Shown one piece after another: positions 12,963 through 13,784 of a stretch of 44,739 bases of DNA (position 1 is its first letter; every line of letters begins with the position of its first letter). The notes beneath the pieces are model-generated. The model searched no databases. It had not been told where the DNA came from and saw only the letters and a program-made list of their open reading frames with translations. Source of the stretch: a virus (lineage: Duplodnaviria > Heunggongvirae > Uroviricota > Caudoviricetes); IMG/VR virus record IMGVR_UViG_647533158_000005. One strand, 5' to 3'. A program made the translations under genes and the position numbers.

Positions 12963-13784
12963 ATGAACCTTGAGGCCTTACCAAAATATTACTCCCCAAA
13001 ATCTCCAAAATTGAGCGATGACGCACCGGCTACAGGCTCAGGTTGTTTAACAATTACGGATGTGATGGCTGCACAGGGGATGGCACAAAATCGAGCTGAG
13101 ATGGGGTTTTCTGCGTTCCTTGGGAAAATAGGTATCAGTATGAATGACAGAGAACGGGCAACAGAACTGCTGACAGAATATGCCCTGAGTCGCTGTGATC
13201 GCGTGGCGGCGTTAAAAAAACTTCCGACAGAAATAAAACCTGTAGTGATGCGCATTATGGCATCGTATGCATTTGAAGATTATGCCCGGAGCGCGGCGAG
13301 CAAAAAACAGTGCTCATGTTGTCACGGAAAAAAATTTATTGAAAGCGAGGTTTTTACAAACAAGATTCAGTATCCGGATGGAAAACCACCGGTATGGGCG
13401 AGGTGTACAAAAGGTGTATATCCGTCTTACTGGGAGGAATGGAAAAAAGTCAGGGAGGTGGTAAAAGTTGCCTGTCCTGAGTGTGGCGGAAAGGGGGAGG
13501 TATCCACAGCTTGTAAAGATTGCCGTGGGCGCGGTGTTGCCATGCATCGTGAAGAGTCGGAAAAGCAGGGTGTGCCGGTTTTCAGAAACTGTCAGCGTTG
13601 TGGCGGTCGTGGCTATGAAAGATTGCCGTCAACGGAGGCATTTAATGCCATATGCAAAGTGACGAGTGCTATTACACTTGATACGTGGAAAAAATCAGTG
13701 AAGCGTTTTTACGATACATTGGTGGTTCAGTTTGATATTGAAGAGGCGTGGGCGGAACAGCAGTTGAATAAGGTGATGCGATAG
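12963..13784 (+). CDS. Late-gene antitermination protein Q-like, with four CxxCxGxG zinc-finger repeats
   Basis: 273-aa ORF immediately upstream of a promoter-like region and a strong intrinsic terminator (tR'-like), preceding late/lysis genes; zinc-binding Cys repeats at aa 117-217. Confidence 0.55.
   Translation: MNLEALPKYYSPKSPKLSDDAPATGSGCLTITDVMAAQGMAQNRAEMGFSAFLGKIGISMNDRERATELLTEYALSRCDRVAALKKLPTEIKPVVMRIMASYAFEDYARSAASKKQCSCCHGKKFIESEVFTNKIQYPDGKPPVWARCTKGVYPSYWEEWKKVREVVKVACPECGGKGEVSTACKDCRGRGVAMHREESEKQGVPVFRNCQRCGGRGYERLPSTEAFNAICKVTSAITLDTWKKSVKRFYDTLVVQFDIEEAWAEQQLNKVMR

Follow-up and report, generated by a model that had tools for sequence, protein, structure and literature searches.

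A lambda-family Q antiterminator whose zinc arm carries an insert that is probably a second, duplicated zinc module

A lambda-family Q gene with four knuckle motifs

We analysed an open reading frame (ORF) and the regulatory region downstream of it in the IMG/VR virus record IMGVR_UViG_647533158_000005, a stretch of 44,739 nucleotides (nt) that we call the window. The ORF (Table 1) is a catalogued late-gene antiterminator (Q) of the lambda family, with a zinc arm to which a putative extra zinc module has been added by insertion. Its product scores 169.3 bits against the lambda-Q family of Pfam (PF03589; cutoff 26.7, E 2e-50) and matches phrog_127, "anti-termination protein Q-like," in PHROGs at 5e-112. 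Of the solved structures, the protein matches that of lambda Q most closely (7ubm_Q, E 1.8e-41), and its fold, a four-helix body with a helix-turn-helix and a zinc-ribbon arm, agrees with the solved structures of lambda Q (PDB 4MO1 and 7UBJ-7UBN). Antiterminators have been grouped in a three-family scheme (PMC9388147); Q21 (PF06530) and Q82 (PF06323) are both absent from the protein's Pfam matches at E up to 1. The identical protein is present in RefSeq as WP_001047088.1 (EFE63826.1), "antitermination protein [Escherichia coli]."

The homology with lambda Q extends over the full length, from the N-terminal nozzle segment through the four-helix, helix-turn-helix body and the arm to the C-terminal helix, and the gene has the same position as in lambda. 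In the phmmer alignment, residues 1 to 113 correspond to lambda Q residues 1 to 113 and residues 182 to 273 to lambda Q residues 116 to 207. Between these two blocks, the window protein has about 68 additional residues in place of a "PG" between lambda positions 113 and 116. An earlier note on this DNA, made from its letters, had recognized a putative Q protein, which the PF03589 and phrog_127 matches bear out, and had suggested that it might represent either a distinct antiterminator family or a domain fusion involving the chaperone DnaJ. Comparisons with Pfam, NCBIfam, the PDB and known folds led us to reject both suggestions. A distinct family is contradicted by the PF03589 score and by an alignment with lambda Q that runs from end to end, save for the one 68-residue insertion; the fusion is weighed below.

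Several regions of lambda Q have known roles. Residues 1 to 44 refold into a nozzle at the channel through which RNA exits, and the arm (residues 114 to 152) is a zinc ribbon made from both of its knuckles; the arm touches positions 11 to 13 of the Q-binding element (QBE), its tip touches sigma region 4, and residues 110 to 112, 117 and 122 to 126 contact the zinc-binding domain of beta-prime (PMC9388147). By analogy, the homologous first 44 residues of the window protein would form a nozzle as well. The insertion point falls inside the surface by which lambda Q meets RNA polymerase at the zinc-binding domain of beta-prime.

The protein has four CxxCxG motifs, at residues 117, 171, 184 and 210, as the earlier note had read them; the interval given there, 13311 to 13614, begins at the right base and ends one base too late, since motif 4 stops at 13613. 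Motif 1 lacks the final glycine of the CxxCxGxG consensus. This pattern is not a product of chance, because none of 200,000 shuffled versions of the protein had three or more C..C.G matches, and only 99 had two. All eight cysteines are invariant across 57 aligned homologues, with identities down to 26%, and four C..C.G motifs are found in 115 of the 120 best database matches.

Two of the four motifs belong to the arm that lambda Q already has. Lambda Q contains two CxxCxGxG knuckles, CRDCHGTG (residue 118) and CGRCKGVG (residue 144), and C184, C187, C210 and C213 of the window protein align with its zinc-site cysteines C118, C121, C144 and C147. Knuckles of the DnaJ-like kind are native to the lambda-Q arm. 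The earlier note rightly set the single zinc site of lambda Q against the four knuckles found here, for lambda Q has one ribbon built from two knuckles. Its opinion that the motifs resemble DnaJ rather than the lambda Q finger does not stand, because that finger itself consists of two CxxCxGxG knuckles. What distinguishes the window protein from lambda Q is that its added residues hold two further knuckles and a long hairpin.

Table 1. Positions of the Q gene, of the segments of its product and of the downstream regulatory elements in the window
Feature	Position	Strand	Basis or remark
Shine-Dalgarno-like GGAGGA	12951..12956	+	6 nt 5' of the Q-gene ATG; read from the sequence
Q gene	12963..13784	+	273-residue lambda-Q-family antiterminator; stop codon TAG at 13782-13784
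Residues 1-44	12963..13094	+	Homologous to the lambda Q nozzle segment; 25/44 identical, including G39
Residues 114-181, inserted with respect to lambda Q ("arm A," the proposed second zinc ribbon)	13302..13505	+	phmmer, AlphaFold, hhalign
Motif 1, CSCCHGKK (C117, C120)	13311..13334	+	Both cysteines invariant
Beta-hairpin between motifs 1 and 2, residues 125-170	13335..13472	+	AlphaFold; base strands conserved, tip hypervariable
Motif 2, CPECGGKG (C171, C174)	13473..13496	+	Cysteines invariant
Motif 3, CKDCRGRG (C184, C187)	13512..13535	+	Homologous to lambda Q C118/C121; cysteines invariant
Arm B tip (strand, helix, strand)	13536..13589	+	Lambda Q alignment; AlphaFold strand 192-194, helix 196-202, strand 207-209
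Motif 4, CQRCGGRG (C210, C213)	13590..13613	+	Homologous to lambda Q C144/C147; cysteines invariant
PR'-like late promoter	13790..13817	+	Aligned with lambda PR' and 46 related loci
-35 element TTGATT	13790-13795	+	Part of the PR'-like promoter
16-nt spacer TTTCCCGAATCTGTGG	13796-13811	+	Candidate Q-binding element
-10 element TAGATT, preceded by TGn	13812-13817	+	Part of the PR'-like promoter
Pause-element position, TGAAAT GGG	13823..13831	+	Alignment with lambda and relatives
Intrinsic terminator (tR'-like), stem-loop 13864-13882 followed by a T run	13864..13892	+	Terminator scan and RNA fold

The inserted module

The inserted module is located at the junction of the body and the arm; it starts with motif 1, from which a long beta-hairpin leads to motif 2. 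AlphaFold models of the full-length protein and of the arm alone (predicted local distance difference test scores of 81.5 and 77.4, respectively) agree on strands at residues 114-116, 125-136, 159-170 and 179-181, with short helices at the hairpin tip between the second and third of these. Motifs 1 and 2 are thereby placed at the base of a long hairpin with two 12-residue strands, and the segment between motifs 3 and 4 is modelled as the strand-helix-strand of the lambda arm. Since a long hairpin with two knuckles at its base has the layout of a zinc ribbon, motifs 1 and 2 on the one hand and motifs 3 and 4 on the other most likely form two tandem ribbons, and the insert would bind a second zinc. 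We refer to the insert as arm A and to the lambda-like ribbon as arm B.

A comparison of the two modules by hhalign pairs residues 113 to 181 with residues 180 to 222 (probability 93.9%, E 1.5e-7), placing motif 1 on motif 3 and motif 2 on motif 4. This suggests a duplication of the arm as the probable origin of the inserted module. Motifs 1 and 2 are absent together from the lambda-type members of the family, and in the members with a short insert they are separated by 14 residues.

The PR'-like promoter, candidate pause region and terminator

Downstream of the Q gene lies a cassette that resembles the lambda PR' region. The late promoter was identified solely by alignment with lambda and related loci; a simple sigma-70 promoter scan of positions 12800 to 14300 flagged none, and the late promoter matches only 8 of 12 positions. 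Of 60 related genomic loci, 46, from many genera of Enterobacterales, present a -35 element, a spacer of 16 to 18 nt, a -10 element, a gap and an AACGAT-like hexamer followed by GG. The gap between the -10 element and the hexamer is 5 to 7 nt, nearly always 6 nt, in these loci, and most related loci have an equivalent terminator. Lambda PR', which reads TAAATT TGACTC AACGAT GGG, has the same arrangement. In the window, the promoter, a -35-like element (TTGCCA) that overlaps the -10, the GGG and the terminator align with lambda and the 46 related loci. The hexamer at the pause position is altered, and the promoter spacer differs in sequence from that of lambda. The terminator that the earlier note had placed at about 13865 was recovered by both a terminator scan and RNA folding (Table 1).

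The promoter spacer is conserved across genera within the Q subgroup of the window and differs between subgroups. This is the behavior expected of a Q-binding element, for which the spacer is a candidate.

Two other features of this region vary between the loci. In the stretch from 13818 to 13851, the downstream ACGTTAG of the relatives is replaced in the window by CCATTAG, so that a small RNA hairpin (AATGG/CCATT) may persist, shifted in register. In many of the loci that are not from E. coli (L006-L037), the stretch that separates the Q stop codon from the late promoter contains an inverted repeat, AAAATAGC...GCTATTT. It lies about 10 to 45 nt 5' of the -35 element (e.g., 3314-3360 in L006), and its right arm enters the -35 region. 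The window, in which only 5 nt separate the Q stop codon and the -35 element, does not have this repeat.

Proposed mechanism and alternative explanations

Because the ORF is a lambda-family Q antiterminator, action in the manner of lambda Q is the most likely, and we hold it highly probable that the window protein acts in this way with an inserted, probably duplicated, second zinc ribbon. The helix-turn-helix body and arm B would bind the Q-binding element in the late-promoter spacer, and Q would dock on the RNA polymerase while a sigma-dependent pause keeps it close to the promoter. The 44 conserved residues at the N terminus would then, together with NusA, form a nozzle over the RNA-exit channel. 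The polymerase modified in this way would pass the terminator and enter the late genes, i.e., the methylase, the tRNAs, the lysis genes and the terminase.

What could the second ribbon add to this process? The pairing of hairpins and promoter spacers across the family is informative. One and the same spacer is paired with hairpins of 26, 28, 33, 44, 46, 49 and 50 residues, and the hairpin type of the window occurs with three unrelated spacers, whereas the sequence of arm B follows the type of promoter spacer. Since the hairpin varies independently of the spacer and arm B tracks it, the hairpin tip is probably a mobile and variable module without a part in determining which DNA sequence is recognized. 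Both the knuckles and the hairpin base, which are conserved, adjoin the residues that in lambda Q contact the zinc-binding domain of the polymerase. The insert would most plausibly add or reshape contacts with the polymerase or the DNA backbone, or have a stabilizing role. A two-armed Q could even load onto RNA polymerase differently from lambda Q, which we regard as a tentative possibility. The conserved base and the hypervariable, freely exchanged tip of the hairpin could provide an extra contact with the polymerase, NusA, sigma or DNA, or they could be a surface under diversifying selection; a diversified tip could be, for example, the target of interference by the host or by rival phages.

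Some observations weigh against this account. The pairing of motif 1 with 2 and of motif 3 with 4 is deduced from predicted secondary structure and parsimony, and the 13 residues between motifs 2 and 3 recall the spacing of the two knuckles of anti-TRAP, which share one zinc. The hhalign signal is carried largely by the cysteines and glycines of the knuckles themselves. At the pause site, the hexamer of the window, TGAAAT, has a G where lambda and every matched relative have an A, and it stands 5 nt past the -10 element, 1 nt closer than in lambda and nearly all relatives; the loading of Q at this altered site may be weakened. Finally, literature searches returned no experiment or structure on any four-knuckle Q protein.

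An alternative to two tandem ribbons is that the four motifs might form a true DnaJ-type domain set on a Q scaffold, with an arm organized unlike that of lambda. In the cysteine-rich domain of DnaJ, the zinc sites are interleaved within a V-shaped hairpin, with motifs 1 and 4 forming one and motifs 2 and 3 the other, and in the window protein they are predicted to be tandem. Four CxxCxG knuckles are indeed present, and anti-TRAP aligns over motifs 2 and 3. The earlier note had proposed a Pfam comparison, which gave 28.5 bits for DnaJ_CXXCXGXG (PF00684), below its cutoff of 32.7, with the antiterminator family PF03589 above its own. K-12 YdfT passes the PF00684 cutoff with 35.4 bits. Yet such matches are sub-threshold or marginal, and lambda Q reaches a similar, sub-threshold 23.1 bits with its single ribbon. 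The segment from motif 3 through motif 4 has its homologue in the lambda ribbon, whose four cysteines share one zinc; the lambda-type members lack motifs 1 and 2 as a unit; and the predicted hairpin of 12 plus 12 residues brings these two motifs together. Such a hairpin, of 14 to 63 residues in the family, also sets the family apart from both DnaJ and anti-TRAP. We therefore consider interleaved sites very unlikely. Still further from the data is a fusion with a cysteine-rich domain derived from the chaperone, endowed with a chaperone-like or substrate-binding function unrelated to antitermination. It owes its appeal to the names of some homologue records ("chaperone protein DnaJ," "molecular chaperone"). 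Pfam and NCBIfam profiles detect no J domain, glycine/phenylalanine-rich region or DnaJ C-terminal domain in the window protein, and the NCBIfam DnaJ models fall far below threshold (21.9 bits for TIGR02349, cutoff 377), which speaks against the domain fusion suggested in the earlier note. The inserted module matches nothing better than the arm of the same protein, and the gene is always at the Q position, 5' of a lambda-type cassette of promoter, pause and terminator. The chance that this explanation is right is close to negligible.

Other alternatives accept the two ribbons and concern what they do, or whether the system still works. The inserted ribbon could be a second arm that reads DNA and extends or changes the Q-binding element, for instance toward bases in or upstream of the -35 element. 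In its favor, the homologous lambda Q arm contacts DNA through residues beside the zinc ligands (PMC9388147), the insert is rich in lysine and arginine, and the spacer is strongly conserved within Q subgroups. However, the varied pairings of hairpins and spacers described above argue against a reading of spacer bases by the hairpin tip, at least. The conservation of the knuckles and of the hairpin base leaves room for backbone contacts, and we judge a base-reading role clearly unlikely. It is also conceivable that the cassette is decaying, the protein being intact and the altered pause element crippling the loading site, so that late activation is weak or absent. The hexamer of the 46 related loci and of lambda has the form xAxxxT, mostly AACGAT, from which the window departs in both sequence and distance; the TGAAAT variant was found neither in viral contigs nor in complete E. 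coli genomes, where the closest intergenic match is about 85% identical and none exceeds 90%. On the other side, the ORF is intact with all conserved residues kept, the promoter, the TTGCCA element, the GGG and the terminator are retained, and the late region, with its lysis genes and terminase, looks complete. Sigma-dependent pauses are moreover known to tolerate imperfect hexamers. Decay is an unlikely explanation, and lambda-like action with a second ribbon remains the reading that we prefer.

Distribution of four-knuckle Q proteins and named relatives

A search for homologues among 1.84 billion cluster representatives retrieved 234 clusters at E <= 0.001. They include lambda-type proteins, which have two knuckles and no insert, proteins with a short insert and proteins with a long insert, the latter being the majority. 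The distances between motifs differ in their constancy: motifs 1 and 2 are separated by 14 to 63 residues, motifs 2 and 3 by a fixed 13, and motifs 3 and 4 by 23 to 27, mostly 25 or 26. Motif 3 is CxCxGxG in many members. Of the 5,426 complete E. coli genomes searched, 2,440 contain a close homologue, and among phage records 113 have matches over at least 80% of the double-arm region. Most homologues have PF00684 in their precomputed Pfam annotation. The four-knuckle architecture is common in enterobacterial prophages and already annotated, as in QuuQ of K-12 and gp17 of phi80, and four-knuckle Q proteins appear to be at least as common in Enterobacterales as those of lambda type.

A few homologues depart from the usual set of motifs. 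One of 337 residues (P0001) contains six knuckles, the motif 1-2 module being present once more at its N terminus; another (P0213) retains motifs 2 and 4 only, and a third (P0003) lacks motif 1. These variants could inform on which knuckles pair.

Some relatives are familiar. The Qin prophage of K-12 encodes QuuQ/YdfT (REQ2_ECOLI, 250 residues), which has the same four knuckles (C113, C148, C161 and C187) and the same neighbors, hok and DUF968/ydfU followed by Q. Its hairpin is shorter than that of the window protein and unrelated to it (27 versus 46 residues), and the promoter spacers differ. Viable lambdoid phages also have four-knuckle Q proteins, namely phi80 (gp17, late transcription antitermination protein, 269 residues) and the P22-like phage ST104 (gp23, 257 residues). 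When P22 itself was checked for the ST104 allele, only ST104-like phages turned up. The hairpin of phi80 gp17 is clearly of the window type (FTEAQVFTNKVSYPWGKPPYW... in phi80, FIESEVFTNKIQYPDGKPPVW... in the window). The GenBank record of phi80 annotates PR', the Q site and the terminators, and its -10 element is TAGATT, as in the window. Phi80 differs from the window in the CxC variant of motif 3, in its promoter spacer and in its pause hexamer, AACGCT, which follows a gap of 7 nt. Literature searches gave no description of a four-knuckle Q, save for one note on an Acinetobacter phage, in which a Q-like protein with two CXXCXGXG motifs was flagged as having an incomplete DnaJ domain.

The practical weight of these observations is small. 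The gene is a recognizable late-gene antiterminator of a lambdoid prophage, and public databases already contain the exact protein and its domain make-up. The analysis does offer a structural clarification, in that a large subgroup of Q proteins seems to possess the arm twice in tandem, with the extra copy inserted at the junction in contact with RNA polymerase. Late transcription is under the control of Q alleles, as is, in phages encoding Shiga toxin (Stx), the output of toxin. To our knowledge, all mechanistic work on Q has been done on the one-armed protein of lambda. Structural or deletion work on a Q with two arms (QuuQ or phi80 gp17, for instance) would for these reasons add something modest but real.

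Over roughly its first 121 nt (12963-13083), the Q gene of the window is 93 to 96% identical to the Q genes of SfV, mEp460 and Stx2c phages and to ydfT of K-12; past this point, these genes have diverged beyond the reach of megablast. The pattern resembles a mosaic joint close to codon 40, where the nozzle-forming segment ends.

Genomic context

The order of genes around Q is that of a lambdoid, Stx-phage-like late region without stx genes: Hok/Gef, DUF968, Q, a 237-residue ORF, an N6/N4 DNA methylase, two tRNAs, a SASA esterase, a lysozyme, Rz and the large terminase. Directly 5' of Q are a homologue of the Hok/Gef toxin (11240-11452) and the DUF968 protein, which has a weak match to HNH nucleases (11900-12949). 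The order hok, DUF968, Q is that of hokD, ydfU and quuQ in the Qin prophage of K-12. The first gene past the terminator is the 237-residue ORF (14028-14741), which appears hydrophobic and has no Pfam match.

We searched for stx genes downstream of the tRNAs of the window and found none; the interval 16500-18003 contains short ORFs only. The closest full-length relative of the window Q gene is located in an Stx2j prophage (L001). This prophage has the same backbone as the window, with stxA and stxB between the tRNA and the SASA esterase (8142-9375). It also has an ORF of the size and position of the 237-residue ORF (7067-7780), annotated as "hypothetical protein."

Of the two tRNA genes of the window, the first (16329-16404) has the anticodon CAT. 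The second (16407-16484) has an anticodon loop of 8 nt; ARAGORN reports it as tRNA-??? with a four-base anticodon, "tttt," and it scores 45 bits with the tRNA model of Rfam.
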